From contig JAZUAE010000018.1 in NCBI GenBank assembly GCA_045637805.1, positions 9,703-73,702 of the forward strand: a stretch of DNA of 64,000 nucleotides, given 5' to 3'. Every line of letters begins with the position of its first letter. The first letter of the stretch is position 1. The DNA comes from Clostridia bacterium. Lineage in GTDB: Bacteria; Bacillota; Clostridia; Christensenellales; UBA1242. Below are positions 445-63,405 of this stretch, one piece after another. The notes under the pieces are model-generated. The model did not search any database and was not told the origin of the DNA. It saw only the letters and a list, made by a program, of their open reading frames with translations. A program made the position numbers and the translations under genes.

Positions 445-2094
445 TTAACCCTTTCTGTTTTTATAATAATCATAGTTTCCATAATATGTTGTAATTTTAC
501 CATTATCAAACTCTATAACTTTATCGGCAAAATTATTAATAAAATATCTATCATGCGATACAAACAAAATTGTCCCCTCAAAATCTTCTATAGCTTTTTC
601 AACAGCTTCTTTTGTTTGCAAATCTATATGGTTAGTAGGCTCATCAAACACAAGACAATTTACTTGTTGCTGCAATAAAATAGCCAGTTTTAGCCTGATT
701 TTTTCGCCACCTGACAAATTCTTCACAAGTTTATTTATATCAGCGTTAGAAAAGTAAAAATTAGCCAAAATTCGTCTAGCCTTTTCTTCATGAATACTTA
801 TTTCTTCAATAAAACAATCTAAAACCTTGTCTTTTTCGTTTTTAAAATTTATCGTTTGAGGCAAATATCCAACCTTTACGCTCGGCCCAACAAAAATTTC
901 ACCCTCACTGTTTAATTCACTTTTTCCAAGTAGAGATTTTACAAACGTAGACTTACCACTACCATTTGCTCCGATTAGTGCAATTCTTTCACCTGCTGTT
1001 ATTATAAAGTTAATATTGTTTAATATGGTTTTTCCACTTGGTAAAATCACTGAAAAGTTACGAGCTTCAAATATTCTTTTGCTTGATTTCGCATCTTCAT
1101 TAAACTTTAATTTTACTTTATTATCTTCCTTAGGTCTTTCAATTTTTTTAGCCAGCAATCTATCTAATTGAGTTTGAAGTGCGTGCGCTCTATCACAAAG
1201 AGTTGAACTATTTTTAGCCATTCCCATTGTTGAAAAATACTTAATTTGTTCTTGTAATCTTTTTATAACTATTTGCTGGTCTTTATAGTCAGCCATTGCT
1301 TTTTCAAACTCTTTATCGCGTTCTTTTAAATAGCCACTATAATTTGTATTATAAACTTTTGCTGTAAGCCCTGATAAATCTATAATTTTTGTAGACATTT
1401 TATCTAGGAAATATCTATCATGCGAAACAATAACACTTGCACCTTTAAAAGATTTTATATAACTTTCAAGCCATTCAATTCGATTAATATCCAAGTGATT
1501 AGTAGGCTCATCGAGCAAAAGCAATTTTGGTTTCTGCAAAAGAACCTTTGCAAGTTCAACAAGAGTCTTTTCTCCACCACTGAGTGTTGAATATTCCTGG
1601 TCAAGTTTATCCATTATTTTAAGCCCACTACAAACAGTATTAATTGCGACATCTATGTCATACCCACCTTTTCTTGAAAACTCTTCAATTAATAGACAGT
1701 ATGAAGATAACACCTTTTCATGCTCGCCACTTCTAGTAGTATCCGATAAAATGTCTTCATATTTTTTCAATCTTTTTCTCATTTCCTCTAAATGTGGGAA
1801 TGCATCTTTAAGAGTGTCTCTCACATTTCTTGAATCTAGCTTATCTGAAGCAGTTTGATCCAAATATGCAACGCTTGCATCTTTACTAATATTAACAGAG
1901 CCAGAATCTCCTTTTATTTTTCCTGCAATAATTTTCAAAAGCGAAGATTTACCACAACCATTAGGACCAACGATTGATATAGAATCTCCTTCATTAAGAG
2001 TAAAAGATAAATCCTCAAATAGTTTTCCATAGCCAAAATTTAAACTCAATTTATTAATATCTAAAATAATCATATATGTTCTCCTTTTGGGCAA
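445..2094 (-). CDS. ABC-F family ATPase (two ABC domains, no transmembrane domain); possible ribosome-protection/ARE type
   Basis: Two Walker A motifs (GPNGCGKSS, GANGSGKST). Two LSGGEK signatures. Two Walker B motifs (LLLLDEPTNHLD, LVFDEPTNHID). Charged inter-domain linker. No hydrophobic segments. Confidence 0.9.
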   Translation of the reverse strand: MPKRRTYMIILDINKLSLNFGYGKLFEDLSFTLNEGDSISIVGPNGCGKSSLLKIIAGKIKGDSGSVNISKDASVAYLDQTASDKLDSRNVRDTLKDAFPHLEEMRKRLKKYEDILSDTTRSGEHEKVLSSYCLLIEEFSRKGGYDIDVAINTVCSGLKIMDKLDQEYSTLSGGEKTLVELAKVLLQKPKLLLLDEPTNHLDINRIEWLESYIKSFKGASVIVSHDRYFLDKMSTKIIDLSGLTAKVYNTNYSGYLKERDKEFEKAMADYKDQQIVIKRLQEQIKYFSTMGMAKNSSTLCDRAHALQTQLDRLLAKKIERPKEDNKVKLKFNEDAKSSKRIFEARNFSVILPSGKTILNNINFIITAGERIALIGANGSGKSTFVKSLLGKSELNSEGEIFVGPSVKVGYLPQTINFKNEKDKVLDCFIEEISIHEEKARRILANFYFSNADINKLVKNLSGGEKIRLKLAILLQQQVNCLVFDEPTNHIDLQTKEAVEKAIEDFEGTILFVSHDRYFINNFADKVIEFDNGKITTYYGNYDYYKNRKG

Positions 2095-2602: not shown

Positions 2603-3850
2603 TTATCTATTTAAATTTTGTAATATTTCATTCATATTACATTCTATATAATTTTTAAATATTTCTTTAACATACCTTTCACTAAACATACAGAACGGCT
2701 TGTTTTGTAAATATTCATTTCTACATCCAAAATTGCAAAGTGGAAGCATATTACAATCTAAACATTTCTTAGGCATCTTTGGAGCACACCAACGTGCCGT
2801 ATTGTATTCATTTGTGTTGTTGTATACATCTCCCACTTTTAAGTTGTTATTTTTAATCTCTTTAGAACACTTAAACAAGTCACCATTTGGCATAATAACA
2901 AAATTAGATAAAATATATGCCGGGCATATTTTATATCTTGGTTTTAGACGATTTATAATATCATTTTGAAGACCACACTTCATTAATTTTCTTAAAATCA
3001 AAATGTCTTCCTTTTCAGAAGATACCAAATCATTATTCCTATCGTCATACATTATTTTTCTAGCTGATACAAAAACATTTTTATACTTAGAGAATTTTTC
3101 AGATAAAAAATCTATCAATTCCATCAATTCATCTAAATTATATGTATCATAGTTGAGACGTATATTTACAAAAATATTATTAGTTAGAAGTTTTTCTATA
3201 GTTCCAATAACCCTTTCAAATGCATTTGGCTCATTAAATAGTTTAACCTTTTCATAGGTCTCTTTTAAACCATCAAGCGTAATTTGTACAGTCTGCAAAT
3301 TCCACACATTTTTAGCTCTACTGATGAGTTGATCATCAAAAATATAACCATTAGATATCATTTTGCTAAAAACAGTGTAACCTTGCCCATTTAGTTTTTC
3401 ACATATATATGTGATAATATGATGATTTACTAGTGGCTCGCCACCAAACCATTCAATAGTTAAACTTTTATTTTCTTTATTTTGGTTAATTATAAAATCA
3501 CAGACCTTATCTGCTGTTTTTTCATCCATTGTTTGAACTTCAACACCCTTTTCATAGCAATAAAAACACTTAGCATTACAAGCCGTAGTAGTTAAAATTC
3601 TATAAAAAGAAGATTTATCTTCTTCAAGCACTTTTCTGCTATTGTAAAGAAACAATTCTGTTTCATCAACTTCATCTTCAACATAAAATCCCAATTCTAC
3701 AAAATTATTAAAATATGTAGAATTTGTATCCATGTTACAAAATTCAGCATAGTTTTTATCATTTAAAATAACACAAGTGTAATTTAATGAATTAAAAATT
3801 AAATTTGCACCACTATTTGAAACAATTACATTATACTTAGACTTTTTCAT
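2603..3850 (-). CDS. radical SAM/SPASM-domain peptide maturase
   Basis: CNAKCFYC (CX3CX2C) radical SAM motif. GGEPL motif. C-terminal Cys-rich SPASM-like region (CPAY...KC...CAPKMPKKCLDCNMLPLCNFGCRNE). About 85-aa N-terminal extension compatible with a peptide-recognition (RRE-like) domain. Confidence 0.9.
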   Translation of the reverse strand: MKKSKYNVIVSNSGANLIFNSLNYTCVILNDKNYAEFCNMDTNSTYFNNFVELGFYVEDEVDETELFLYNSRKVLEEDKSSFYRILTTTACNAKCFYCYEKGVEVQTMDEKTADKVCDFIINQNKENKSLTIEWFGGEPLVNHHIITYICEKLNGQGYTVFSKMISNGYIFDDQLISRAKNVWNLQTVQITLDGLKETYEKVKLFNEPNAFERVIGTIEKLLTNNIFVNIRLNYDTYNLDELMELIDFLSEKFSKYKNVFVSARKIMYDDRNNDLVSSEKEDILILRKLMKCGLQNDIINRLKPRYKICPAYILSNFVIMPNGDLFKCSKEIKNNNLKVGDVYNNTNEYNTARWCAPKMPKKCLDCNMLPLCNFGCRNEYLQNKPFCMFSERYVKEIFKNYIECNMNEILQNLNR

Positions 3851-3910
3851 ACTCTCTCCTATTAGTAAAATAAAAAAAGTCTAAAGAAAGAATCTTTAGA
3901 CCATTGCCAA

Positions 3911-4015
3911 CTAGTCGTTCATTAATTGAGAACAATCTGGACCAGAACCACCAGGGCAGTTGCAAGACATACTTACAACATGTGATAATTGCATTTTCTT
4001 TAATACAAAAAACAT
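3911..4015 (-). CDS. 34-aa Cys-rich RiPP precursor candidate MFFVLKKMQLSHVVSMSCNCPGGSGPDCSQLMND
   Basis: AGGAGG 8 nt upstream of the ATG. Lies 60 nt upstream of the rSAM/SPASM gene on the same strand. Three Cys in the C-terminal core. The ORF-track entry 3837..4052 is a different frame covering the SD. Confidence 0.6.
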   Translation of the reverse strand: MFFVLKKMQLSHVVSMSCNCPGGSGPDCSQLMND

Positions 4016-4128
4016 AACACTTACCTCCTATTTGGTATCTTAAGTTTAACATAAAAAGTCAATCTTGTAAACATTTATTTATGTAATTTCTAAAATTAAT
4101 CTTTTACAACACTAGAACGAAAATACTC

Positions 4129-4197
4129 CTAGCCATCAGTAGAATATGAAGACACATTCGCTAATTGCATTTTCTTTAATATTGAAAACTTAAACAT
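4129..4197 (-). CDS. 22-aa paralogous leader-only peptide MFKFSILKKMQLANVSSYSTDG (core lacking Cys)
   Basis: DNA and peptide similarity to the 5' half of the 3911..4015 gene (shared ...LKKMQL..V.S). Weak SD (GGAAG) with short spacing. Stop falls before any Cys. Confidence 0.3.
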   Translation of the reverse strand: MFKFSILKKMQLANVSSYSTDG

Positions 4198-6119: not shown

Positions 6120-6372
6120 ATCTTTTTCCTCTTTTTCTATAATATTGCATAAACAAGGTATAGTCAATCATTTCATAACAATTCCCCTCATATTTTACAA
6201 AACAAAAATACCAGATATATTACATTCATGAAAAGGAAAAGCAACGCATAAAAAAGCCAAACAAGTTTACTTATTCGGCTTTACCAAATTATTTACATAA
6301 TTATAGATATTCTGTAAATCTAATCTTTATTAATACTTTTTATATTTTGGAATACAAAATCTATATGTTTAG

Positions 6373-7362
6373 TTACATTTCTCTATATTGGTTTTGTTTT
6401 TTTCTATCTTTTGTCATTTGGATTTTTTTCCATTCAGGAACACCAGTCAATTCTTGTTGAATCTCTTTTCTAGATTGCTCTTTTCTCTTAAATTTTAGAT
6501 ATCTATTAAACAATGCTTCATCTAATTTTCCATTTTCTATCGCTTCACGAATTGCACACCCTTTTACACCTTCAGCATGAGTACAATGTGAAAACTTACA
6601 ATGAGATTCAAGTTCAATTATTTCTCCAAATACCTCATTAATACCTTCACTGTTTTCTTCTTTTGAAACACCAACAGCTCTAACCCCTGGTGTATCAATT
6701 ACAATTCTACCATCATCAATATAGAACAAATTTCTAGATGTTGTTGTGTGTCTACCCTTTGCATCTTTGTCTCTAATTTCCCCAGTTTTCATTAAATTTT
6801 TATTAGCCAATGCATTAATTAACGTAGATTTACCAACACCAGAACTTCCAATAAATATAGCCGTTTCACCAGGAGCCCAAAGTTTTAAAACATCATCAAC
6901 ACCATCATTTTCAATTGTACTAGTTGATACAACAGAACTGTTTGGAAACCTTGCCTTAACCACATCTTCAAACACTTCTGGCATATAACATAAATCTTTT
7001 TTTGTCAAAATAAAACAAAGTTTCGATTCTGGAATATTACCTAAAATTGCAAATCTTTCAAGTTTTCCAATGTTAAATTCATTATTCATACTACTAACAA
7101 CAAACACTACGTCAATATTTGATGCTATTTGTTGTTTTTTGCCATTATTCATTCTAAAAAGTTCATTTTTACGAGCACCTATATCTGTAATAAAATAATG
7201 GCCATACTCATCAACTCTAACGGAAATATTGTCTCCAACACAAGGCAAATCTTGGTTTTTATAAGATCTATCTAGCTGTGCATAATATACCTCACCATTA
7301 TTATTAAATTCCCACAAATTTCTTTGAACTGAACTACATTTTGCATTAAACGTATTATTCAT
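6373..7362 (-). CDS. rsgA: RsgA/YjeQ-like circularly permuted ribosome-associated GTPase
   Basis: G4 LTKKD precedes G1 GSSGVGKST and G3 DTPG (permuted order). C-terminal zinc knuckle CKFSHCTHAEGVKGC. The ATG overlaps the upstream rSAM stop (ATGAATAA). Confidence 0.85.
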   Translation of the reverse strand: MNNTFNAKCSSVQRNLWEFNNNGEVYYAQLDRSYKNQDLPCVGDNISVRVDEYGHYFITDIGARKNELFRMNNGKKQQIASNIDVVFVVSSMNNEFNIGKLERFAILGNIPESKLCFILTKKDLCYMPEVFEDVVKARFPNSSVVSTSTIENDGVDDVLKLWAPGETAIFIGSSGVGKSTLINALANKNLMKTGEIRDKDAKGRHTTTSRNLFYIDDGRIVIDTPGVRAVGVSKEENSEGINEVFGEIIELESHCKFSHCTHAEGVKGCAIREAIENGKLDEALFNRYLKFKRKEQSRKEIQQELTGVPEWKKIQMTKDRKKQNQYREM

Positions 7363-8748
7363 GTAATAATTCCCCCTTTAATTTCTTTAACAACGCTTTA
7401 CAATTAATAAAAAACTTTTTAGATTTTTCTTTCAACTCACTTCTGTTGTTAATATTAGCAACTAATAAATCTAAATAGTTGTATGGCATTGTTTTGAGCA
7501 TTATTAATGTCTGATTATCAATCAAATTTGTCGATAAGACTTTTTCAATATCATAACCAAACTCTACAAAAAACTTGGTTAGCTTTTTAAATATGAATCC
7601 AACATCTTTATTTATAAAATAATTTCGCTCATTGAACTTACCATAATCATCTTTTACTTTTGTTCCAGGATAAGCAATTACTTTTTTATAAATTAGTGTT
7701 GGATAATACCCCCATAATTCATTTTCTTTAAAAAACGATAAATTTTCTTTAACTTCGTTTATACTAGTATACCTGTCAAACATAATAAAACCAATACCTA
7801 TATTGATTTTTGATTCTCGTAACATTTTTATAGCCTTAACATTTTCTTCTACTGTCGTAAATTTTTTATATCTATTTAAAACATTATTTGAACCATTTTC
7901 AATACCAAGTTCAACCGCTGTACATCCATATTCCTTTAGCCCATTTAAGTATTCTTGCCCTGCACTAATAATCTGATTTACTCTCGTTGCGAAAGAAAAC
8001 AACAATGTTTTACCACATTTTTCCTTTATACTTTTTACAATATTTAATGCTCGATTTTTATCAACAAAAAAATTATCATCTATAAATACTAAAAAAATAT
8101 TTTTTTCTTTTTATAAATTTCATAAACTTCATCTGCTATATTTTGTGGGCTTCTGCCTCTCCATTTTAAACTCATACATGGTATTGAACAAAATGCACAC
8201 TTATATGGACAACCTCTACTTGTTGAAATGCCAACATTGATTAGTTCTTCACCTGTTTCTTTATTCTTTCTTGTTGAATATAAATGAAAAGTATCACGAG
8301 TTGGGAAAGGTAAAGAATCCAAATCATTTTCTTGATAAATTGTATTTGTAATAATAATTGAATTATTTATATTTTTATATGAAACACCTTCTAACTTTAT
8401 TGTTGGTTTGGAATTTTTTTCTAAATCTTGTAAAAGTTTAAGAAGCTGAACCTCCCCGTCACCTCGCATTGCAAAATCAAAACAATTGTATTTTCTAATT
8501 ATTTCTTCATGACAAATTGTAGAATGAACACCACCTGCTGAAATAAAAATATTTCTTTTGTATTGTTTTATTTTTTTAGCAATCTTTAACACCCTTTTAA
8601 AACAGCTAGAAAAAATAGAAAAACCAACAAAATTATACGATTTTTCTTTTATTAATTTTATTAAATCACTATCTTTAAAATTATATATAGCAGCATTACA
8701 AAAACCTTCAACAAAAACAACTTTTTCTTTTAACAATAATTCTAACAT
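7355..8748 (-). pseudogene. B12-binding-domain radical SAM enzyme, split by a 1-nt frameshift in an A7 run
   Basis: N-terminal Rossmann-like cobalamin-binding region, then CPYKCAFC. ORF 8089..8805 ends in ...YKKKKIFF*. The adjacent frame continues sensibly (KEKNIFLVFIDDNFFVDKNRALNIVKSIKEKCGKTLLFSFATR...) into ORF 7355..8005. The homopolymer is at 8100-8106. True start is ATG 8748 (AAAGGAG SD). Confidence 0.75.
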
Positions 8749-8764
8749 ATAAACTCCTTTTATT

Positions 8765-8863
8765 TTAGGTGGTTGGATTACATTCATCATCTGGATAACA
8801 TCCACTTAAACGACAAGCAGCTGCAATTCTATCAGAACTTGTAACTTTTGCAATTTTAGACAT
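8765..8863 (-). CDS. 32-aa Cys-containing RiPP precursor candidate MSKIAKVTSSDRIAAACRLSGCYPDDECNPTT
   Basis: GGAGGA 7 nt upstream of the ATG. Stop lies 16 nt before the B12-rSAM start. Three Cys in the C-terminal half. Not in the ORF track. Confidence 0.55.
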   Translation of the reverse strand: MSKIAKVTSSDRIAAACRLSGCYPDDECNPTT

Positions 8864-9162: not shown

Positions 9163-9210
9163 ACAAAATAAAAAGACTAAAGCATATTCGTTTTAGTCTT
9201 TTTATGGTGC
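9163..9210. repeat. copy 2 of the 48-50 bp direct repeat
   Basis: ACAAAATAAAAAGACTAAAGCATATTCGTTTTAGTCTTTTTATGGTGC. Differs from copy 1 by a 2-nt indel and 1 substitution. Confidence 0.7.
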
Positions 9211-9220
9211 GGATGAAGGG
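9205..9220 (-). other. 16-nt tRNA 3'-end-like fragment (CCCTT CATCCGC A CCA)
   Basis: On the minus strand it reads as T-stem 3' strand, 7-nt acceptor strand, discriminator A and CCA. The repeat-copy-2 terminator follows immediately. No T-loop or tRNA body lies upstream. Confidence 0.35.
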
Positions 9221-9321
9221 TACTGTGTTTGCTTCGCAACCACCCGCACAAAGGATTAACCTTTATGCTATTCGTCGCTAAAAACAGTCCACTGGTCTGT
9301 TTTTTACACTCCTCACCCTCT

Positions 9322-9346
9322 CAGGGTTCGAGTCCCTACCATTCCG
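9322..9346 (+). other. tRNA 3' fragment (T-arm plus acceptor 3' strand), no complete tRNA
   Basis: cAGGG-TTCGAGT-CCCTa T-arm, then CCATTCC/ACCATTCC and G. No complementary 5' acceptor strand (GGAATGG) and no anticodon arm within 150 nt upstream. Confidence 0.45.
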
Positions 9347-9353
9347 TAAACAT

Positions 9354-9385
9354 AAAAAAACTAGGCATGAATCCTAGTTTTTTTT
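9354..9385 (+). terminator. intrinsic terminator after the tRNA-like fragment
   Basis: AAAAAAA-CTAGG-CATGAAT-CCTAG-TTTTTTTT. Confidence 0.6.
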
Positions 9386-9409
9386 GTGTCAATTGTTCAC
9401 AAAGTCTTT

Positions 9410-9507: not shown

Positions 9508-10113
9508 TTAACTAATATTGAATTTGTTTTTTACATCTCGTAATATATAGTTATTGCCTGCAAATTTGCTTAAGAAAAATTGAGCTTCTTCTTTTGATTC
9601 ACACGCATACGCCCTTGATGCTATGTGATCTTCCAATCTATTCCATGTGTTGAAATCCATACTGTTTCTACTTACAAGTTGAACTAAATTTTTATCTTGC
9701 ATTTTCTTTAATTCTTCCAAAACATTTTCGATCTTTATTCTTTCTTTTATCTTGCAAGATTTCGTTATATAAAACTCATAACCATCTACAACAACGTCAC
9801 TTTTAGAGACGTCACAAATATAAATATACCCACTTTTATTAAATAATTCTTCAAAAAAACCATCATATAGTTCGTAAATTTTGATAGGTTTTGAATTAAA
9901 ATTTATATGACAGGAACAAGCATGCGCCCTTGTTGTACTATTTATATTTTCCAAATACGATTGTATTGGATTGAGAGAAAATAACAACGCAACTTCTATC
10001 TTGTCAGCAAAATATATTCTTGGCTTATAATCAGCCCTTTTATATGCTCTATGTGGTACTAATTCATCATCAATCAGAACATTGCTTCCATGATACAATT
10101 CCATATTTATCAC
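9508..10113 (-). CDS. hypothetical protein (prophage-end cargo, own promoter and terminator context)
   Basis: 201-aa ORF preceded by a TATAAT-like box and AAGGGTGA SD, downstream of the recombinase terminator. Begins ..MELYHGS. No family recognised with confidence. Confidence 0.5.
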   Translation of the reverse strand: MINMELYHGSNVLIDDELVPHRAYKRADYKPRIYFADKIEVALLFSLNPIQSYLENINSTTRAHACSCHINFNSKPIKIYELYDGFFEELFNKSGYIYICDVSKSDVVVDGYEFYITKSCKIKERIKIENVLEELKKMQDKNLVQLVSRNSMDFNTWNRLEDHIASRAYACESKEEAQFFLSKFAGNNYILRDVKNKFNIS

Positions 10114-10151
10114 CCTTTATTATTATATCATAGAGAACAGAATAAAACAAT

Positions 10152-10183
10152 AAAAAAAAAGCCACTAATTTAGAATTAGTGGC
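10152..10183 (-). terminator. intrinsic terminator after the recombinase genes
   Basis: GCCACTAATT-CTA-AATTAGTGGC followed by T9 on the minus strand, 4 nt after the stop. Confidence 0.65.
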
Positions 10184-10186
10184 TCA

Positions 10187-11773
10187 CTATATATTTTGAT
10201 CTAAAGCTATGCCACATTTAAACACATATGTCGCAGTATGCTTATCTTTTATGATTATTTTTTCTATCAGATTCTTACAAATTTCTTTATCGAATGTTGT
10301 GTATACACCATTTAGTACTTTGTCTATTTCTTTTATTCTATAATTTATAATACTAATATTATCCGTTTTCTTTTGGGCTATCTCTATCTTTTCTTTCAAG
10401 TCCTTTATTTGGGCTATAATTTCGCTCGATTTCGCTTGTATATCATCTGTTGCCTTACTTGTATTGATTGTAAGGTTTACAAGTTCTTCTTGCTTTTTAA
10501 TAAGGTTATTTTGCATCGATTCAAGAGTTTCTATATCTGGCACATTTATAACTGTATTAATATTATTTTTTACCTTTTCTATAATATCTTTTCGATTTGA
10601 TGTCAATACTTGCAAAGCTTCAATAAATCCTTGTTCCAATAGATTCTCTTTTATAGGTTTCATTGAACATGCATTTTTGTCTTTTTGATGCTTTGTACAT
10701 ACCCATATTGGAACTTTTTTACTATGGTCTATACTCCATTGTGAATGTCTGCGAAATTTTGCACCACATTCTCCACACTCAACAATTGAGCTAAATGCAT
10801 AATCGTTAGTGTACACCCCAAATCCGTCATCTTCGCTTTTAAGTTCTTCACGCCTTTTAAGTTCTATTTGTACTGCATCAAAATCTTCTTTACTAATAAT
10901 CGCCAAGTGATGACCAGTTACATAATATTGTGGCTTAAATCCTTCATTCTTTTTCCTTTCACAAAGTATGTCTGGCTTGTATGTTTTTTGGAGTAATAAA
11001 TCGCCCTTATATTTCTCGTTGGTTAAAATATTGATTATTGTGTTTACATACCATTTAGTTTTTCCATAAGGTGTTTTTATTTCATCTTTTTCAAGTTCTT
11101 TCTTAATTGCTCTAATCGTATTACCTCTGAGATATGATTCAAATATCCTACGAACAATCACAGCTTCTTTTTCTACTATTTTAAAACCATCTTTGGTATT
11201 GTACCCGAATATTCTACCACTACCAACATACTCTCCTTTCTCAAATTTCTTTTGATGAGACCAAGTAATGTTGTGGGATATTGTTCTGCTTTCTTCTTCA
11301 GCAATGGAGGCCATTATTCCTAGCAATAAGAAGGAGTTTGGATCTGCCGTATCAATATTTGTAGTTTCAAAGAGTATTGTAACACCTCTATCTTTTAACT
11401 CTTGTGCTATTGTTAAGCATTCCCCCGCATTCCTGGCAAATCTTTGTACTGATTTAGTTATAATTCTTGTTATTTTACCATTTCGACAATCATCAATCAT
11501 TTCTAGAAATTTCTTTCTTTTTCTCATTTTTGTTCCAGTAATACCCTCATCAGCATATAAGCCAACATAAACGATACCCTTATCACTACTTAATTTTTTA
11601 TTATAATACTCACACTGAACTTTATAACTATTTAGTTGGTCCTCATTATCCGTACTAACCCTAGCATATGCACAAACTCTAGGTTTATTTGCTAACATAT
11701 TTATTGTTCCACCAACCATTTTCTGCCTTGCAGGAATAACTCTAATAGTTCTTGCAGTACTTTCTATGTTCAT
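10187..11773 (-). CDS. large serine recombinase (528 aa)
   Basis: N-terminal resolvase domain with AYARVST (catalytic Ser). Recombinase domain. Zinc ribbon CGECGAKFRRH...C. C-terminal coiled coil. Confidence 0.9.
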   Translation of the reverse strand: MNIESTARTIRVIPARQKMVGGTINMLANKPRVCAYARVSTDNEDQLNSYKVQCEYYNKKLSSDKGIVYVGLYADEGITGTKMRKRKKFLEMIDDCRNGKITRIITKSVQRFARNAGECLTIAQELKDRGVTILFETTNIDTADPNSFLLLGIMASIAEEESRTISHNITWSHQKKFEKGEYVGSGRIFGYNTKDGFKIVEKEAVIVRRIFESYLRGNTIRAIKKELEKDEIKTPYGKTKWYVNTIINILTNEKYKGDLLLQKTYKPDILCERKKNEGFKPQYYVTGHHLAIISKEDFDAVQIELKRREELKSEDDGFGVYTNDYAFSSIVECGECGAKFRRHSQWSIDHSKKVPIWVCTKHQKDKNACSMKPIKENLLEQGFIEALQVLTSNRKDIIEKVKNNINTVINVPDIETLESMQNNLIKKQEELVNLTINTSKATDDIQAKSSEIIAQIKDLKEKIEIAQKKTDNISIINYRIKEIDKVLNGVYTTFDKEICKNLIEKIIIKDKHTATYVFKCGIALDQNI

Positions 11774-13223
11774 ATTTATACTCCTTCTTTATGCATTGCT
11801 GATTTTTAAAAATGATATCTATTTTATAATCTGTAATAATTATTTTTTCTATATGTTTCTCCACAATTTCATCGGTAAACTCTTTTGCTTTACATTTAGG
11901 TTTTTTATAAACACTTAATAAATTATAATTACGTAATTTTTCAATTAATTCTGATTGTTCTTTTGTTTTCTTATCAACCTCTAGTTTATATTGACCATAT
12001 GTTATTAATTTGTCTATGTACAATCTTTTAATCTTATCAATAATGTTTTGAATTTCTCTTATTTTCTGTTTTAATTCGTTATTGTTAGGTAACTCGTATG
12101 GAATATCTACGTATTCATTATAAGCATCAAATATGATCTCATTTAATAGATCCTGAGGAATGTCAATCGCCGAACAAGCACATTTACCATGCCTTTCTTT
12201 GTTTATACATATCCATTGTCTATTATCACAATTTACAATGCGCTTATTAATTCGGTGTCTGAATGTATTTCCACACTTCCCACATTTAATCTTCCCTGAC
12301 AGCGAGTACCTTCTTTTTTCTTGCATTTTATTGCCGGTTGCCTTTCGAGTTCTTTCCAACATTATTTTATTAACAGAATTAAAAGTTTCTCTATCTATTA
12401 TTGCTTCATGATTATTGGTTATGTAATACTGCTCTAATTGCCCCTTGTTTTTTTGTTTACGGCCATTATCGTAAAATTCTTTTTGCAATAAAGCATCTCC
12501 AATATATTTTTCGTTTCTTAATATTCTTTGCACTGTTGTGTTTCGCCAAACTTCCTTTCCTGTACATGTTGGAATTTTAAGTTTTGTTAATTGATTTGCT
12601 ATGCCTTCTATTCCATATCCCTTTAAGTATAATGTAAAAATCAATCTAACAATCTTAGCTTCTTCTTTATTTATTACCATTTGATTTTCTTCATTAAAAT
12701 CATAACCAAAGATTTGGGTTTTGGGAACAATCCCTTTTTTAAAATTATTTCGTGCTGTAAATTGCACATTTTTACTCATAGTTCTCAATTCCTGTTCCCC
12801 TAATATTGCCTTTAGGTTCATTAATAAATCCATAGAACATGTTAATGTATTTATGTTTTCTTCATCAAAAATTATTGCAACACCTTTCTCTCTGAGAGTT
12901 TTAATTACATCCATAGTTTCTTTACTATTGCGACCAAACCTATAAATACTTTTTGTATAAATTTCTTTTATAAATCCAGCCATCGCTAGCTCAATCATTT
13001 TGACATACTCTTTTCTTTGTATTACCTTATGTCCACTTATACCTTGATCTGCAAACACTCCACAGAATTTCCTGTTTGACAATGTTTGGAGTTTTTCTGT
13101 CCAATAAGAATCCTGCATTAAAAAACTTGATTCTTGCTCTTCTTTCATAGTACTTACTCTTACATAAGCACAACATGGAATTTCTTGATCCTTACTTGAA
13201 TCTATTCGTTGTATTTTTGCCAA
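11742..13223 (-). CDS. large serine recombinase (493 aa)
   Basis: AYVRVST catalytic motif. Recombinase domain. Zinc ribbon CGKCGNTFRHR. 32-nt overlap with the downstream recombinase gene. Confidence 0.9.
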   Translation of the reverse strand: MAKIQRIDSSKDQEIPCCAYVRVSTMKEEQESSFLMQDSYWTEKLQTLSNRKFCGVFADQGISGHKVIQRKEYVKMIELAMAGFIKEIYTKSIYRFGRNSKETMDVIKTLREKGVAIIFDEENINTLTCSMDLLMNLKAILGEQELRTMSKNVQFTARNNFKKGIVPKTQIFGYDFNEENQMVINKEEAKIVRLIFTLYLKGYGIEGIANQLTKLKIPTCTGKEVWRNTTVQRILRNEKYIGDALLQKEFYDNGRKQKNKGQLEQYYITNNHEAIIDRETFNSVNKIMLERTRKATGNKMQEKRRYSLSGKIKCGKCGNTFRHRINKRIVNCDNRQWICINKERHGKCACSAIDIPQDLLNEIIFDAYNEYVDIPYELPNNNELKQKIREIQNIIDKIKRLYIDKLITYGQYKLEVDKKTKEQSELIEKLRNYNLLSVYKKPKCKAKEFTDEIVEKHIEKIIITDYKIDIIFKNQQCIKKEYKYEHRKYCKNY

Positions 13224-13420: not shown

Positions 13421-13738
13421 TTATTTGTCTTTGACATTAATTTCTACTTCCTTTATATCAATACCAAATTTTTTAAGCTGTTTAAATATTTGATTACATC
13501 CCGTAGCAGATAATCCACTTGCTCCGCCAATAAGAATTGCAACCCAAATATTAGATGCAGATATAATGCTTGGAATAAAATAAAAACATATAATTGCCAA
13601 TACTATACCAAGTAGTCCAGCTATTATTGGAATAAGTCTGATTAAATTTTCCTTCTCTTTTGCAATATATTTTTTATAAATTTCCATAAACAAAAAAACC
13701 AGTGCAACAATCACTGGAACACAAATAATTTCTAACAT
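13421..13738 (-). CDS. holin-like membrane protein
   Basis: 105 aa with three hydrophobic helices. GGASGLSATGCNQIFKQLKK motif resembles phi-LC3/LL-H type holins. Charged C-terminus. Sits after the tail fibre genes. Confidence 0.6.
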   Translation of the reverse strand: MLEIICVPVIVALVFLFMEIYKKYIAKEKENLIRLIPIIAGLLGIVLAIICFYFIPSIISASNIWVAILIGGASGLSATGCNQIFKQLKKFGIDIKEVEINVKDK

Positions 13739-14051: not shown

Positions 14052-15707
14052 CTATTCCACATTTATATTTGAAGCATTTACCAATGTAAATTTCGTTGTT
14101 CCATTTAACATATTATTAATTTGTGTTTGTAAATTTTCTCTCTCATTGGTTGCTTCATTTAATTGAGTATTAAAAGTTGTAGTTAAATTATTTATAGCCT
14201 GTTGTACAGAACTATCTATTAATTCTTTCAATACTTTTCCTTGCTTTGCTGATAAAACATATGCAGAATTTTCAGACTCCAAATTATCTACAATTGTTAC
14301 TCCAGCATCTGTGCCTTTTAATGCAATCAATCCCCAATAATCATTTTCTGCACTATCTGATGGTTTTTGGTTTATGTTTGTTTTTTTACAATAATAAGTA
14401 CAACCAAAAATACTAACTGTATCAATAAAATATTCATTGTTCAAATATTCTGTGCTAGCATCCCAACCACCCATGGCTCGATACGACTTTCCTTGTTTAG
14501 GCTCTGGAATATTAAAATGAATATTTTTTCTTTTTGTTATTTCATTAGTTTCAATATTGACACTTACATGCTCAGTACAATCAATTTCTGAACTTGAGAC
14601 CGTTAAATTTTCAACAATATCAAGTGCTGTTGATGATTTATTATTTGCAGTTTCAGCTGTAGAAACGGCATTTTCTGATTTATCATTAGCAATATTTGCA
14701 GCATTCACTGCATTAGTTGCACTTGTATTTGCATTATTTGCTGTCATAACTGCGTTATTTGATTTTTCATTTGAAAAATTCGCAATATCATTTGATTCTT
14801 GAGCAATTTCTTTAGATTCCGAAGCTAATGCAACTGCATTATCCGATTTTTCATTTGCATTATTTGATGTTTGGACTGCATTGTTTGACTTTTTATCTGC
14901 ACTATTTGCAATTTCTAGTGCATCTTCAGAGTTACTAAGTGCTACATTTGCAGTATTTACAGCATCTATTGATTTACTATTTGCTGTATTTGATGTTTCT
15001 ACCGCCCTATCAGCTTTTTCATTAGCACTATTCGACACCTGCTCAGCATATTCCGCACTATTTTGAGCAGCCAATGCACTATTTTCTGCATTTTTTGCCT
15101 TTATGTTTGCAGAGTCTGCACTATTTTGAGCAGCCAATGCACTATTTTCTGCATTTTTTGCACTATCTTCTGCATTAATGGCTGATTTTTCTGCATCATC
15201 TGCTCTCTTTTGAGCATCTTCAGAGTTAGCTAAAGATTCTCGTGATAACTCTAAAGATAAATTTGCATATTCGTATGCTTGAATTATAAGATCTGGATTT
15301 TCTGAACTTTCTTTTTTAACATACATTATTGAATCTTCAATAATAATTTTAAACAATTTAAATGGCACAAAAGTTTCTGTGTTGTCTGCTAGATATGCAA
15401 TAAATTGAATTTGCAATTCCCCCTTAATCGTTACTGCCGTAGGCAAAGTAAAAGCAAAGTTTAATTTATCAAAATCTTCGCCATAGTTTTTTGTTTCATC
15501 TTCAGGTGTATATAACCCTATGCTCCACTTTTCATTTCTTATATTTTTAAAGTCTACTCGTTTTGAAAAGTCTTTATATTCTTCTGGGAAATGCACAAGG
15601 ATTGTTGTGGCATTATTTTCGCCAGAAATAATTTCATATTCTTCTTTATTTTCAGCAACATATTGCTTGTTTCTTTTTAGTGTTATTTCTATTCCTTGCA
15701 TATTCAT
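14052..15707 (-). CDS. tail fibre protein with Ala/Asn/Ser-rich periodic repeats
   Basis: 551 aa. Central region (about aa 160-365) consists of xAxNSAxxA-type repeats, including a duplicated KNAENSALAAQNSA. Last large gene of the tail module. Confidence 0.55.
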   Translation of the reverse strand: MNMQGIEITLKRNKQYVAENKEEYEIISGENNATTILVHFPEEYKDFSKRVDFKNIRNEKWSIGLYTPEDETKNYGEDFDKLNFAFTLPTAVTIKGELQIQFIAYLADNTETFVPFKLFKIIIEDSIMYVKKESSENPDLIIQAYEYANLSLELSRESLANSEDAQKRADDAEKSAINAEDSAKNAENSALAAQNSADSANIKAKNAENSALAAQNSAEYAEQVSNSANEKADRAVETSNTANSKSIDAVNTANVALSNSEDALEIANSADKKSNNAVQTSNNANEKSDNAVALASESKEIAQESNDIANFSNEKSNNAVMTANNANTSATNAVNAANIANDKSENAVSTAETANNKSSTALDIVENLTVSSSEIDCTEHVSVNIETNEITKRKNIHFNIPEPKQGKSYRAMGGWDASTEYLNNEYFIDTVSIFGCTYYCKKTNINQKPSDSAENDYWGLIALKGTDAGVTIVDNLESENSAYVLSAKQGKVLKELIDSSVQQAINNLTTTFNTQLNEATNERENLQTQINNMLNGTTKFTLVNASNINVE

Positions 15708-20277: not shown

Positions 20278-20679
20278 CTATCCCTTTATTTTTCTTTGAA
20301 ATCTGTCGTATATTCTCTCATCCATGTCTTTTAGGTTATGGATTGCTTTGTTTATGAACCTAGTTCCTTTTATGGTGCTAGTTCCATAGTTGAGTATGTT
20401 TGCTATCTTTTGGTAAGGAATACCTTTTCGGTTTTCCCCTTGGAACTCTACCGAGTATCCATACCAATTGTATTTGGCTACAATCTTGCTTTTCTTTAAT
20501 GAGTTCAAAAGTCCAAGTGTTGCACCCCTAGGTGTTGTGGACTCTAATTGTTTTATTAGGTTTTCCACTTCAAAATCTATTTGCTCTTGTATAGCTTCTA
20601 TTGCATAATCCCCATAATCACTTATTTGCTCAAAGTATTCGGCTAATTGCTTTGAAACACCATCATTCCAACTTGCCAT
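20278..20679 (-). CDS. hypothetical phage protein
   Basis: 133-aa ORF between the chaperone and the tape measure. Start abuts the upstream stop. Confidence 0.4.
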   Translation of the reverse strand: MASWNDGVSKQLAEYFEQISDYGDYAIEAIQEQIDFEVENLIKQLESTTPRGATLGLLNSLKKSKIVAKYNWYGYSVEFQGENRKGIPYQKIANILNYGTSTIKGTRFINKAIHNLKDMDERIYDRFQRKIKG

Positions 20680-20945
20680 TTATCCCCTTAATTTCCCATT
20701 GAGTGTCATATCCGACAAACTCATAGGTTTTGTGTATTGAATATTCTTTCCTTCTGCTTTGGCGATTGTCAATGCATCTATTTGTGCTGAATAATCTATT
20801 AGGTCATAGAAAACATTAAGCCCCATATCTGCCATGTTTACATGAACCCCTGTTTTTATGGCACAATAAAGCATTTGAGTTGTAAAATCTCCCTCAATTT
20901 GGCTTGTTTCAGCACTTCTTATCCCTGGATTTATCTTTTTTTTTG
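20680..20945 (-). CDS. -1 frameshift extension of the tail assembly chaperone (gpGT-like product)
   Basis: A 9-A run (20936-20944) sits at the end of gpG. The -1 frame is open from the slip site (..KKKINPGIRSAETSQIEGDFTTQMLYCAIKTG...) to the stop at 20680. Frame arithmetic matches a -1 shift. Confidence 0.5.
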
Positions 20946-21374
20946 AGCAATAAACAATGAGAAAAAGTCCAAAAGTTCGCTGATTATTCCCTTATCTGTG
21001 ATTACATAAGGTGGAATACTCATAATCAATTCGCCAACATCCATTTTGTTTGGGTATTGTGCTGTTGCAATTAGTGATGCTATAAAGTTTAGGATAAACT
21101 CACAATCAAACTCGTATTGCTCCATAGTTGAAAGCACTTCGTTTGCTTCTTTATCTTCTAGTTTTTCTAGATCTTCAATGGTTTCAATGTTGTATTCCTT
21201 TAATTTTTCAAGAGTATCCTTATTAGAGTTCTTCTTTGCGAAACTTATAATGTCGTTCAGCAAATCTTTGCCGAAATAACTCTTGTAAAGTATAAATGTG
21301 AAGGCATTTCCACATAGTTTAATTTCTTCGCCATCATCTGTTTTAATGGTCTTTATTAATCCATATTGTTTCAT
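20931..21374 (-). CDS. tail assembly chaperone (gpG-like)
   Basis: 147 aa, acidic, between the major tail and the tape measure. Ends in the slippery run CAA AAA AAA AGA TAA. Confidence 0.6.
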   Translation of the reverse strand: MKQYGLIKTIKTDDGEEIKLCGNAFTFILYKSYFGKDLLNDIISFAKKNSNKDTLEKLKEYNIETIEDLEKLEDKEANEVLSTMEQYEFDCEFILNFIASLIATAQYPNKMDVGELIMSIPPYVITDKGIISELLDFFSLFIAQKKR

Positions 21375-28940: not shown

Positions 28941-30326
28941 CTATTCTTCGTATAATTTTGTGTCTTTGAATAGTATTTCTTTCCCATCTCTTTCTAGGTA
29001 TATGTCATCACTTCCAAATGCTTTGACAAATCGTTTTACGATTACATCGCAATAGTTTTCGCTTAATTCCGAATTATATGATTTTCTGTTCAGTTGTTCG
29101 CAAGCCATTAATGTAGAACCACTACCTGCAAAGGCATCAAACACGATTTCTCTTTCACGACTACTGTTGCGAATTAGTTTCCCACATAATGTTATTGGTT
29201 TCATTGTTGGATGTTCTGCATTTCTTAGTGGTTTTGCATCTTTTATTATATCGCTTGGATAGTTTTCTAGTATTTTGTTTAGCAAGTCAACAAGTTCTTC
29301 TTTCTTCAATTTGCTTATGTCTTTGGTTGTTTCTATTACTGTTGATAGTGTCCTATCGTGTATGAAATAATGTGGTTTACCATCTACCACTTTCCAACCA
29401 TATAGGATTGGTTCATGCTGCCACTGGTAGTCGTTGCGACCAAGTGTGAAATGGTCTTTTGCCCAAACTAGTGTTTGTGATACTTTGAACCCAGCATCTT
29501 TCATTGCTTCAATAAAGTTTACTGATTCTTTAGTGCTATGGAATACATAGATTGCTCCACCACCTTTTGTTATTGCATATGCTGTTTCGTAAAACTTGAA
29601 AAGGAACTTGTAGAACGACTCATCATCCATGTTGTCGTTTAGTATGCTTCTGTTCTCCATAATCACACCACGAGCCCTTGCTCTATCCTGCTCGCTATTA
29701 CCATAATCTATGTTGTATGGTGGATCGGTTACAATTAAACTTGCTTGCTCGTTTTCGACAAAAAGTCGCTCTATATCCTCCAGCTTTGTGCTATCTCCAC
29801 ACAACAATTTATGTTGTTTGATATGCCAGATATCGCCACTTTGAGTAAATGGTTTGTTGTCTATTTCTTCCAAAGCTTCGCCAACATCAAAGTTGTCCTC
29901 ACTGACATTATATTCCGTTCCTGCAAACAACTCATCCAATTCTTCTGTTTCAAAACCTGTAAGGGAAACTATTCCACCTTGATCTAACTCCTTAAGCAAA
30001 TCTGTAAGCAAGTCATTATCCCATTCGCCACTAATTTTATTTAGTGCAATGTTTAATGCTTTCTCTTTTTGCTCATCAAGATCTACAATCACACAATCAA
30101 CTTCGGTGTATCCTAGGTGTTTCATTACTTCAAGTCGTTGGTGTCCACCAACTACTGTGTTTGTTCTTCTATTTAGAATTATTGGTTCTACATAGCCGAA
30201 TTCTTCAATGCTCTTTTTCAGTTTCTCAAACTCTTTGTCGCCAGGTTTTAACTTCTTTCTTGGGTTGTAGTCTGCTGGTTTTAATTGTTCAACTTTTAAT
30301 TTCTCAATTTGCATTATATTCTCCAT
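28941..30326 (-). CDS. ParB-like N-terminal domain fused to N6-adenine/N4-cytosine DNA methyltransferase
   Basis: ParB/Srx-type N-terminus (YNPRK...VVGGHQR). TDPPY catalytic motif. FAGSGST SAM-binding motif. Confidence 0.85.
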   Translation of the reverse strand: MENIMQIEKLKVEQLKPADYNPRKKLKPGDKEFEKLKKSIEEFGYVEPIILNRRTNTVVGGHQRLEVMKHLGYTEVDCVIVDLDEQKEKALNIALNKISGEWDNDLLTDLLKELDQGGIVSLTGFETEELDELFAGTEYNVSEDNFDVGEALEEIDNKPFTQSGDIWHIKQHKLLCGDSTKLEDIERLFVENEQASLIVTDPPYNIDYGNSEQDRARARGVIMENRSILNDNMDDESFYKFLFKFYETAYAITKGGGAIYVFHSTKESVNFIEAMKDAGFKVSQTLVWAKDHFTLGRNDYQWQHEPILYGWKVVDGKPHYFIHDRTLSTVIETTKDISKLKKEELVDLLNKILENYPSDIIKDAKPLRNAEHPTMKPITLCGKLIRNSSREREIVFDAFAGSGSTLMACEQLNRKSYNSELSENYCDVIVKRFVKAFGSDDIYLERDGKEILFKDTKLYEE

Positions 30327-30360: not shown

Positions 30361-31446
30361 TTAATCTTTTATTTGTTCCCAAGGAAACTCAGGTCTGCCA
30401 AAATGTCCATAGCACGCTGTTTGCTTATAAATTGGATTTAGCAATCCTAGTTCCTTGATTATATTGTCTGGTCTAAAATCAAAGTTATCATCCACATACT
30501 TTGCGATTTCTTTTAATGGTTTTGTGTTTGTTCCGAAGCAATCAATGCAGATTGACACTGGATCGGCAAGCCCTATCGCATAAGCAACTTGAATTTCGCA
30601 CTCTGTTGCAAGTCCATGTGCTACGATATTCTTGGCAACATACCTTGCGTAGTATGCTCCTGACCTATCTACTTTGGTTGCATTTTTAGAACTGAAACAT
30701 CCGCCACCCACTCGGCCAACTCCACCATAAGTATCTACCACAATCTTACGACCAACACAGCCACTATCTCCAAAGCTTCCCCATACTGTGAATTTACCAC
30801 TTGGATTCACAATGATTTGTGTTTGATTGCCAATAAGGTGTGCATATTCCGCCAAAACAGGCGCAACAACCTTGTCAGCGATTGTATCCCTTATTTCTTC
30901 CTTACTTAGGCTCTTATCGTGCGACACGCTGATTAAAATGGTTGCAAACTCCAACACCTTTTTGTTGTTGTATAAAACTGACACTTGGCTCTTTGCATCT
31001 GCAAAGTATTTATCGGTGGTTCTTCTAAAAACATCATACTGTTTCATAAGTTTATGAGCGACAATTATTGGCAATGGCATATACTCATCTGTCTCAGCTG
31101 ATGCATATCCATAGACCATACCTTGGTCGTTTGCACAAAGTTCTTTCTTTACCACTGCTTGGTTGATATCTGGACTTTGCTCACTAAGTTCTTTAATGAT
31201 TGTAAACTCGTTTTTGTATCCTATATCCTTTAATACTTCCTTGGCAATTTTATCATAGTCAATGTTTGCTTTGGTTGTTGCTTCCCCATAAATAAATAAT
31301 TTGTCATTCTTTATGGCACATTCAACTGCCATTTGGCTATTTGGATCTTGGCTTAATGCTTCATCCAAAAATGCATCTGCGATTATATCGCATGTCTTGT
31401 CTGGGTGTCCACAATTGACACTTTCACTTGTTACTACTTTAATCAT
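30361..31446 (-). CDS. metK: S-adenosylmethionine synthetase (compact, 361 aa)
   Basis: GHPDKTCD, QSPDINQ, DQGMVYGYA, DAKSQV, GRKIVVDTYGG, GGGCFSSKNATKVDRSGAYYARYVAKN and ACYGHFGR align along the whole MetK fold. Confidence 0.95.
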   Translation of the reverse strand: MIKVVTSESVNCGHPDKTCDIIADAFLDEALSQDPNSQMAVECAIKNDKLFIYGEATTKANIDYDKIAKEVLKDIGYKNEFTIIKELSEQSPDINQAVVKKELCANDQGMVYGYASAETDEYMPLPIIVAHKLMKQYDVFRRTTDKYFADAKSQVSVLYNNKKVLEFATILISVSHDKSLSKEEIRDTIADKVVAPVLAEYAHLIGNQTQIIVNPSGKFTVWGSFGDSGCVGRKIVVDTYGGVGRVGGGCFSSKNATKVDRSGAYYARYVAKNIVAHGLATECEIQVAYAIGLADPVSICIDCFGTNTKPLKEIAKYVDDNFDFRPDNIIKELGLLNPIYKQTACYGHFGRPEFPWEQIKD

Positions 31447-31488: not shown

Positions 31489-31622
31489 AAAAACCCATCG
31501 CTACCGATGGGCTAAAATTCGAATATAGGAATTACCATCGGTCAGCCTTTAGCACCTTAGCATCGCCAGGTTGCTGTGTGGTCATAGGGGCTGTCCCTCG
31601 CACACTCTTTATGGATGCTTTC
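31489..31622 (-). promoter_or_regulatory. SAM-I (S-box) riboswitch with intrinsic terminator, 5' of metK
   Basis: Minus strand reads ...CCATAAAGAG..GAGGGACAGCCCCTATGA..CAGCAACC..AGGTGCTAAAGGCTGACCGATGG. Then the terminator CCCATCGgtagCGATGGG+TTTTT. CCGATGG can alternatively pair with CCATCGG (antiterminator logic). TATAAT box at 31624-31629. Confidence 0.8.
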
Positions 31623-62481: not shown

Positions 62482-63405
62482 TTAAAACTCAAAAGTATAT
62501 GTTCCTGTATTTGAGTCATAAGTTGCACTTACATTTGTAATTATTGGTTTTCCCTCTAATACCGCAACCCTATTAGAAACGTTTATAATGTTTGTATTTA
62601 ATTCTTGATCTTTAGCATTTAATGATTGAACTGTTGATTCAAAAGTTGATTTGTCTGCTTTTGTATTTGCATCAAACTCAGGAGTATATACTCCATCCAC
62701 TTTAACTTTTGTACCTTGTTGTGCAACGACTTGTTGAGCCAACTCTTCTACTGCTGCCTTTGTTTCTTCAGATGTTGTTCGTGAGGTTTCAGCAATTGTT
62801 TTAGCCTCCTCGGCAATAGTTTTAGCTTCCGCTGATGTTGTATTTGCTTGAGTTGATGTTGTATTTGCATTTGTAGCTGTTGTTACTGCACTTTCCGCTT
62901 TTGTATTGGCACTTGCTGATACATTATTAGCATTTGTAGCAATTGTTTTGGCCTCCTCAGCAATAGTTTTTGCTTCCATTGCTGTTGCATTTGCCTGAGC
63001 CGATGTTGTATTAGCATTTGTAGCCGTTGCTACAGCATTGTCAGATTTTGTGTTCGCCTCTCCAGCAGTAGTATTGGCTTGCCCTGCTGTAACATTAGCA
63101 GAATTTGCCGTTACTACTGCATTATCTGCTTTAGTATTAGCATTTGTGGCAGTTGTCACTGCACTGTCTGATTTTGTATTGGCACTTGTGGCCATTGTTT
63201 CAGCTCTTGCTGCGGTATTATTCGCATCAACAATTCCCTGCTGAAATTCTCTCATTACTTCTTGGTCGATGGCTGTACCAGTATTAGTTGGTTCATCCGC
63301 CATTTCAACATCTACAAGCATTGTATCTGCTGTTTGGTTAATAATTTTTAATCTTTTTCTACCAGGATATGTAGATACTCTATCCTGAAAATCAAATTGC
63401 TTCAT
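62482..63405 (-). CDS. fibre-like protein with Ala/Thr/Asn periodic repeats
   Basis: ANTKSDSAVTTATNANTKADNAVVTANSANV..., with the duplicated block EAKTIAEEAKTIA. Confidence 0.5.
   Translation of the reverse strand: MKQFDFQDRVSTYPGRKRLKIINQTADTMLVDVEMADEPTNTGTAIDQEVMREFQQGIVDANNTAARAETMATSANTKSDSAVTTATNANTKADNAVVTANSANVTAGQANTTAGEANTKSDNAVATATNANTTSAQANATAMEAKTIAEEAKTIATNANNVSASANTKAESAVTTATNANTTSTQANTTSAEAKTIAEEAKTIAETSRTTSEETKAAVEELAQQVVAQQGTKVKVDGVYTPEFDANTKADKSTFESTVQSLNAKDQELNTNIINVSNRVAVLEGKPIITNVSATYDSNTGTYTFEF

Follow-up and report, generated by a model that had tools for sequence, protein, structure and literature searches.

The window analysed here, a stretch of 64,000 nucleotides (nt) of contig JAZUAE010000018.1 (assembly GCA_045637805.1, Clostridia bacterium), contains on its minus strand, between positions 6373 and 8863, a small open reading frame (ORF), an interrupted gene for a B12-binding radical S-adenosylmethionine (rSAM) enzyme and a complete gene for a GTPase of the RsgA/YjeQ family. 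An earlier note on this DNA had described the group as an operon for a peptide made on the ribosome and modified after translation (RiPP), and had offered three explanations for the interruption: a decaying cluster, a sequencing error in a homopolymer, or phase-variable expression. The genes and signals of the locus are as follows (aa, amino acids; SD, Shine-Dalgarno sequence):

8765-8863, minus strand: Cys-rich ORF of 32 aa, translation MSKIAKVTSSDRIAAACRLSGCYPDDECNPTT, with a strong SD
8089..8805, minus strand: 5' part of the B12-binding rSAM gene, covering the B12-binding domain as well as the CxxxCxxC cluster site; premature TAG after the break
8100..8106, minus strand: A7 run at the frame break of the rSAM gene; A8 would give a single ORF of family length
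7355..8101, minus strand: 3' part of the B12-binding rSAM gene, in the -1 frame, NIFLVFIDDNFF ... to the stop
6373..7362, minus strand: complete gene for an RsgA/YjeQ-family GTPase of 329 aa, its start overlapping the rSAM stop (ATGAATAA), with its own SD AGGGGG
6235..6285, minus strand: hairpin (fold -17.2 kcal/mol, z=-3.1) with a U-run behind it, downstream of rsgA, likely the terminator of the operon

The small ORF and its spacing to the rSAM gene were found as previously described: its ATG has GAGGAGG 7 nt ahead of it, and 16 nt separate its stop codon from the ATG at 8748. On its 5' side follow, in this order, an AT-rich spacer of 340 bp, a GC-rich element of about 140 nt and a prophage-like block. 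The hairpin behind rsgA was not among the output of a simple terminator scan, and a promoter scan of the window gave a result no better than that obtained with shuffled sequence.

The interrupted radical SAM gene

Read from the ATG at 8748, the rSAM frame contains the B12-binding domain and the radical SAM core with the motif CPYKCAFC and runs into a TAG at 8089-8091; the next frame (NIFLVFIDDNFF...) continues to the stop at 7355-7357. The change of frame is confined to AAAAAGAAAAAAA (8112-8100); the A7 run (8100-8106) is part of this stretch. Addition of one A yields EIYKKKKNIFLVF, which is equal in length to the EIYKKHKNIFIVF of an orthologue, and joins the two frames into one B12-binding/Radical_SAM protein, in agreement with the single-nucleotide change that the earlier note had postulated. 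The repaired protein has 464 aa and is matched by the Pfam models for B12-binding (PF02310, 44 bits, although spanning only residues 23-102) and Radical_SAM (PF04055, 68 bits); CPYKCAFC begins at residue 180, and thus both the CxxxCxxC motif and the rSAM core are present. Its NCBIfam matches are to generic class B families (BchE, ArsL, ApyD, TIGR03975), with 88-130 bits, far under the respective cut-offs.

The 5' end of the gene is aberrant. Using tblastn with orthologues, homology to the family was detected to begin only at about 8778 (IQPP versus LQPLG). Upstream of a GTG at 8805 there is a TAA in frame. The candidate start codons are this GTG, which is not preceded by an SD, and the ATG at 8748, which has the SD AAGGAG and would shorten the protein by about 31 residues at the N-terminus relative to the family. 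Divergence is greatest in the N-terminal 40 aa: of 30 positions which are conserved in the four closest relatives and lost here, 13 are situated within the first 38 residues. Two of the substitutions, L13P and D339G, affect columns that are invariant in 10 of 10 relatives, while the four closest relatives lose none. In an AlphaFold model, based on a shallow alignment of 11 sequences, strands beta1 and beta2 of the B12 domain were not formed, and residues 1-14 had a pLDDT (predicted local distance difference test) of 27; in a control with one of the relatives (P0002) and the same 11 sequences both strands were formed, with pLDDT >88.

Apart from the frame break, the 464 codons are free of stops and 56 of the 59 universally invariant columns are kept, so that any inactivation should be recent. 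A scan for homopolymers across the whole 64 kb produced 54 A/T runs of at least seven, of which only the run in the rSAM gene coincided with a frame break within a gene; the remaining candidates were ordinary gene junctions. Neither half of the rSAM gene is present in the protein collection that was searched, which does contain the RsgA, an ABC-F protein and the 32-aa ORF of the same NCBI contig, and this suggests that the depositor had called the gene a pseudogene. Considering the aberrant 5' end together with the loss of one base in an A8 tract, the rSAM gene of the window is most likely a recently inactivated pseudogene.

A six-gene cluster in relatives

A search of 5.8 billion proteins yielded four close homologues of the rSAM enzyme with 53-65% identity (P0001-P0004; BLASTP identities) and four with 39-43% (P0005-P0008), all of them intact and 482-520 aa long. 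The contigs of P0001-P0004 and P0007, and one further contig which was reached from the RsgA side, provided six distinct loci (among L001-L009, and L100), with rSAM identities of 42-65%. All six showed the same gene order:

gene 1: small unknown protein, 75-90 aa
gene 2: PqqD-like peptide chaperone, 86-90 aa
gene 3: precursor, 33-50 aa, ending in S[WY]C[YF][AG][SG][EQ]SK
gene 4: SPASM rSAM enzyme, 317-322 aa
gene 5: B12-binding rSAM enzyme
gene 6: RsgA-family GTPase, its gene coupled tightly or by translation to that of the B12 rSAM enzyme

The precursors are clearly homologous, with a conserved core at the C-terminus (...RYSFTHSWCYASQSK; ...RYSFSDSWCFASESK; ...NSWCYASESK; ...SDSYCFGGQSK). Across the loci, the position of the RsgA start relative to the B12 rSAM gene varies from a gap of 3-4 nt to an overlap of 17-20 nt, and the outer flanks of the cluster are different in every locus. 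Comparison of the window with the cluster loci by tblastn gave identities of 49-69% for the rSAM enzyme (49-63% for its 3' part) and 61-67% for RsgA, and the loci rank in the same order of identity to the window for both proteins. Since RsgA directly follows an intact B12 rSAM gene in each of the six distinct loci, the adjacency of the two genes, for which the earlier note had recommended a test, is conserved.

The cluster is rare; of the B12 rSAM enzyme, about eight clusters with an identity of at least 39% were seen among the 5.8 billion proteins searched. NCBIfam holds no model for its precursor, PqqD protein, SPASM enzyme or B12 enzyme, and in a scan of metagenome contigs with the alignment of the rSAM enzyme, B12 rSAM proteins of a generic kind dominated the matches, the best one being 35% identical. 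In the literature searched, RsgA/YjeQ is not described in rSAM or RiPP clusters; rsgA was mentioned only as an entry in one table, on genes for translation in antibiotic producers, where no link to rSAM enzymes or RiPPs is made, and in a review on translation-targeting RiPPs the word "GTPase" occurs only within the title of a reference. A conserved cluster with a terminal RsgA is thus undescribed in that literature.

When the proteins of the relatives were used in tblastn searches of the 64-kb window, no orthologue of the PqqD protein, the precursor, the SPASM enzyme or the small unknown protein was detected. The only SPASM enzyme of the window (2603-3850) is a different, CefB-like maturase with 22-25% identity to the SPASM enzyme of the cluster.

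The 32-aa ORF has one homologue, P0361 (MAKISLVTSTDRIAAGCRLSGCHPDDECDPTT), on short ENA contigs; no other was found in an exhaustive phmmer search of 1.84 billion representatives. P0361 is 78% identical (E=4e-10) and retains the length of 32 aa, the start, the stop and all three Cys residues, which answers the doubt expressed earlier about whether the small ORF is conserved at all. No match to the ORF was found in the related cluster loci, in Pfam or in NCBIfam, and its similarity to the precursors of the family is not significant (p 0.2-0.85 on shuffling). On these sequence comparisons it may well be a real small gene; it does not, however, appear to be the precursor of the cluster family, and would rather be a separate small gene, conserved only within the lineage of the window. 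The previous assignment to a RiPP operon therefore holds as far as the genes for the rSAM enzyme and RsgA are part of a cluster of the RiPP type, but not for the 32-aa ORF as the precursor, for which the relatives use another peptide. The 32-aa ORF ends with codons that overlap, in another frame, those of the first residues with homology to the rSAM family (IQPP). The C-terminus of P0361 (PTT-stop) likewise spans these out-of-frame IQPP codons; the arrangement is thus probably shared, an rSAM remnant would probably follow there as well, and the arrangement would then be old.

Two other origins of the ORF were considered and rejected. A remnant of the C-terminus of the SPASM enzyme was suggested by CRLSGCY, which resembles CRGGCW, and by the same +1 frame relation to the rSAM gene; it was dropped because a gap of 60 nt would be needed and counting by hand gave about 40% identity around the start of the rSAM gene. 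A divergent precursor of the family, suggested by the resemblance of SGCY to SWCY, was dismissed since the similarity was not significant on shuffling.

RsgA and the interpretation of the locus

The GTPase of the window is a complete member of its family, scoring 147.1 bits with TIGR00157 (cut-off 100) and 147.7 bits with PF03193 (cut-off 30). The motifs of the GTPase are in the permuted order, with G4 (TKKD) at residues 120-123, G1 (GSSGVGKS) at 172-179 and G3 (DTPG) at 223-226, and a Cys/His zinc site, CKFSHCTHAEGVKGC, is located at 255-269. Residues 35-299, the N-terminal OB-fold region included, could be aligned to Bacillus subtilis YloQ (1T9H), and the protein also aligns to Escherichia coli RsgA on the 30S subunit (5NO2, 2YKR). 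A Lys-rich C-terminal tail (PEWKK..KDRKK) is common to the whole lineage. The start codon, ATG 7362, lies, as had been reported, within the overlap ATGAATAA with the rSAM gene; this overlap amounts to 8 nt. With an intact reading frame and its own ribosome-binding site and terminator, the gene probably still provides a working 30S-assembly GTPase. A second RsgA was not found within the 64-kb window, which covers part of a contig of 128,543 bp, and a scan of the genome contigs with RsgA returned only four irrelevant P-loop matches. The genes further downstream, for a 321-aa protein, MazG and HIT, were examined as possible members of the cluster and discarded, as they are not conserved beside the RsgA of the relatives.

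Two loci bear on the question whether the RsgA of the cluster is a specialized copy. The metagenomic contig L100 carries two RsgA genes 10 kb apart (10001-10978 and 20377-20978), whose products are 62% identical: one terminates the cluster, and the other, P0133, is situated among SpoIIIAH, Asp23, M24 peptidase, NusB, XseAB and LepA. Of the two, it is consistently the stand-alone copy that has diverged further from outgroup RsgAs. In locus L102, an RsgA with 64% identity to that of the window (P0124) stands alone, without a remnant of a cluster, and no synteny with this locus beyond RsgA was found. In a bootstrapped neighbour-joining tree, P0124 grouped with the RsgAs of the window and of the L001 type (98%) and P0133 with the cluster RsgAs of L002, L004 and L100 (99%); the two stand-alone proteins were sisters in 0 of 100 bootstraps. 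Since stand-alone RsgAs are nested among the cluster copies, there is no ancient paralogue of a "cluster type", and the idea of a specialized immunity copy is weakened; an immunity or target-mimic role of RsgA, as suggested in the earlier note, may still apply. From the tree, the cluster-linked RsgA looks like the ordinary RsgA of the lineage, or like a copy repeatedly exchanged with it.

A sister cluster (L010/L011), whose rSAM protein P0009 is 37% identical to that of the window, has a GTPase of 665 aa embedded among its maturase genes (L010, 3754-5751; L011, 1817-3814). The L010 protein scores 481 bits on the model for tetracycline ribosomal-protection proteins (NF012153; cut-off 775) versus 335 bits for EF-G. 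The same cluster also contains three rSAM genes, a Cys-rich ORF of 41 aa (…SSLTVSACHCCA) and an M29 peptidase. Like proteins of the Tet(M) type, RsgA binds to the 30S subunit near the decoding centre. That related clusters contain two different 30S-binding GTPases is the best hint of products that have to do with the small ribosomal subunit, and the TetM-like gene leaves a link to the ribosome plausible. A more specific proposal would be that the rSAM-modified peptide acts on the 30S subunit and that the RsgA or TetM-like GTPase of the cluster protects or clears the ribosomes of the producer, in which case the GTPase of the window would resemble an orphan immunity gene; this is at present a tentative and rather unlikely reading.

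The view that we consider the more probable one, with some reserve, is that the locus is what is left of the conserved cluster after reduction, its B12 rSAM gene having been inactivated recently and its rsgA being intact and self-sufficient. It would represent the 3' end of a six-gene cluster for peptide maturation, of which the first four genes would have been lost and the rSAM gene broken, while rsgA survived. Of the three explanations offered previously, a decaying cluster is the best one, as the four upstream genes are absent from the window and the 5' end of the rSAM gene is aberrant. In an intact cluster, the PqqD protein would present the precursor, the SPASM enzyme would cross-link or otherwise modify the Cys-containing C-terminal motif, and the B12 enzyme would add a methyl group or a related modification; this chemistry is drawn from the known PqqD/SPASM and class B rSAM families. 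For RsgA at the end of the cluster, the leading idea would be that the peptide product and the small ribosomal subunit are functionally linked. Splitting of the cluster by the prophage was also considered and rejected, because the far side of the block (from about 52.9 kb on) has a sigma-like gene and an RHS protein and none of the missing genes, and no att-like repeat was present.

Several points weigh against such a decay. The missing genes could lie elsewhere in the genome, since only 64 kb were covered, and a miscalled homopolymer would yield exactly the frame break that is seen. An alignment of 11 sequences is weak evidence for an absent strand, so that the AlphaFold model is suggestive, not decisive. 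The 32-aa ORF is conserved in P0361 and is followed by a canonical succession of stop, SD and ATG before the rSAM gene; at an RsgA identity of about 84% (P0122), conservation of this kind would not be expected of unconstrained DNA. An old arrangement is also hard to reconcile with an rSAM gene that is decaying and yet free of stops.

These points lead to the alternative of a functional, remodelled operon of three genes, in which the small ORF may be functional: the 32-aa peptide would be the substrate, the rSAM enzyme would be intact from ATG 8748 or GTG 8805 (A7 being a miscalled A8), and RsgA would be co-expressed. It could account for the strong SD of the ORF, for a homologue with 78% identity, equal length and all Cys residues, for the stop, AAGGAG and ATG within 16 nt before the rSAM gene, for the otherwise stop-free frame with CxxxCxxC and 56 of 59 invariant columns, and for the exact family length obtained with one additional A. 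We regard it nevertheless as unlikely, since the window has neither a PqqD-like recognition protein nor a SPASM partner, the peptide is dissimilar to the precursors of the family, the N-terminal strands of the B12 domain are absent in the model but present in the control, and L13P and D339G fall on invariant positions. Furthermore, the search of 5.8 billion proteins produced no rSAM fragment of about 80% identity from the organism of P0361, and the assembly of the window shows no other homopolymer frameshift. Actual use of the frame break, by programmed -1 frameshifting, by transcriptional slippage or, as had also been suggested, by phase variation through slipped-strand mutation, is very improbable. 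A -1 shift would indeed be needed, and the site lies in a run of lysine codons, UAU AAA AAG AAA AAA AUA; A runs in lysine codons are of a type known to slip. However, the six orthologues and the rSAM gene of the sister cluster all read the site in one frame, with A runs varying from 4 to 8, which indicates that neither a slippery site nor a frameshift is conserved; a stimulatory element was not seen either, although no search aimed at one was made.

A different question is whether rsgA belongs to the cluster at all. It could be an ordinary, vertically inherited gene for 30S assembly, its adjacency being incidental, with an old peptide cluster upstream of it in the process of being lost. In favour of this are the stand-alone copies P0124 (L102) and P0133 (L100), which are nested inside subclades of cluster RsgAs with 98-99% bootstrap and are never sisters; the retention of all GTPase and zinc motifs by the cluster copies, with TIGR00157 scores like those of stand-alone copies; and the divergence of NrdR between L001 and L102 (59%), which is similar to that of their RsgAs. 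Such an explanation is possible, although still doubtful: the two genes stay coupled over rSAM identities from 65% to 42-43%, although the outer flanks differ; the RsgAs of L002 and L100 are 89.5% identical while their upstream flanks are different, so that the cluster and rsgA appear to move together; L100 possesses a second RsgA at a distance of 10 kb, in a setting that resembles that of a housekeeping gene; and the sister cluster has a TetM-like GTPase among its maturase genes.

If RsgA does belong functionally to the cluster, this would be the first ribosome-assembly GTPase recruited to a pathway for a peptide natural product. The rare cluster family would then be a likely source of 30S-directed peptides, and a resistance-guided search should become possible. 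The lasting interest would be in the conserved link of a peptide cluster with a ribosome GTPase, the window itself being of modest significance.

Neighbouring elements and comparison with known systems

An ABC-F family ATPase is encoded at 445-2094 (minus strand), 4 kb downstream of rsgA; its nearest relatives among 5.8 billion proteins are only 70% identical, and the lineage of the source organism would thus be one that has been sampled poorly. Another RiPP operon is present at 2603-4197 (minus strand), with a CefB/TIGR04463-like rSAM/SPASM maturase at 2603-3850 and, upstream of it, two small ORFs which both have the leader LKKMQL, MFFVLKKMQLSHVVSMSCNCPGGSGPDCSQLMND (3911-4015) and MFKFSILKKMQLANVSSYSTDG (4129-4197).

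The GC-rich element of about 140 nt (9208-9346, plus strand) has ends which can pair, a tRNA-like fold and a T-arm-like GGTTCGAGTCCC, and is followed by a strong terminator hairpin (9350-9390; fold z=-4.0). Neither a tRNA nor a tmRNA was recognized in it by ARAGORN or Rfam. From its position between the 32-aa ORF and the end of the prophage, the element could be a fragment derived from a tRNA or tmRNA, or a remnant of an attachment (att) site. The prophage-like block (about 9500-52900) begins with two adjacent large serine recombinases (10187-13223), contains a holin (13421-13738) and has a helix-turn-helix repressor and an M78 peptidase (51844-52852) at its far end. No att repeats of the block were found, and similarity to phages, as a guide to its boundary, gave one weak match of a recombinase only. 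Inside the block, on the minus strand, a SAM riboswitch (31492-31617, 61 bits) precedes metK (30361-31446), which is followed by a gene for a Noc-like N-terminal region fused to a DNA adenine methyltransferase (28941-30326). A phage-borne SAM synthetase under riboswitch control would be unusual.

Beyond the block, a gene with sigma-70 region 4/DUF1492 (52925-53371) is followed by a gene for an RHS-repeat protein of 2047 aa (53457-59600, plus strand); the locus probably encodes a polymorphic toxin. Repeats with a period of 21 nt are shared by two regions (14635-15200 and 62770-63225), in minus-strand genes which are separated by about 48 kb and whose products resemble Ala-rich fibre or zipper proteins; the common repeats suggest that a second phage-like element may be located at the end of the window.

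With respect to known systems, the clusters of the relatives are similar to those for PQQ (pyrroloquinoline quinone; PqqA/D/E) and mycofactocin (MftA/B/C) and to those with ranthipeptide (PapB-type) and sactipeptide maturases, in that they likewise combine a short precursor, whose C-terminal core is conserved, with a PqqD protein and a SPASM rSAM enzyme. The best NCBIfam matches of the latter are to NirJ2, mycofactocin, WgkB and PapB-type maturases, all far under the cut-offs. Unlike these systems, the cluster adds a B12 rSAM enzyme and RsgA, and neither an exporter nor a protease is consistently present; the window itself differs further in having no PqqD protein, precursor or SPASM enzyme of this kind.

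The rSAM protein shares an N-terminal B12 domain, which may be incomplete in the window, and the CxxxCxxC core with the class B enzymes that modify RiPPs or further natural products (TIGR03975 C-methyltransferases, ApyD, PhpK, and the solved OxsB, TokK and CysS), and OxsB is its closest solved relative. It differs from the named families by the frameshift and the aberrant N-terminus, and since every match to a class B family is far under the cut-off, it represents an unnamed rSAM subfamily.

We know of no protective role for RsgA. The ribosomal protection GTPases Tet(M) and Otr(A), which occur in the clusters of producers, find their likeness in the TetM-like GTPase of 665 aa in the sister cluster L010/L011, whereas RsgA is of a different GTPase family. 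Compared with RsgA/YjeQ/YloQ (CpgA), the GTPase of 30S biogenesis, the protein of the window has the full architecture and all motifs; in contrast to a typical RsgA, the copy in the window and in its relatives is the last, coupled gene of a cluster for peptide maturation.

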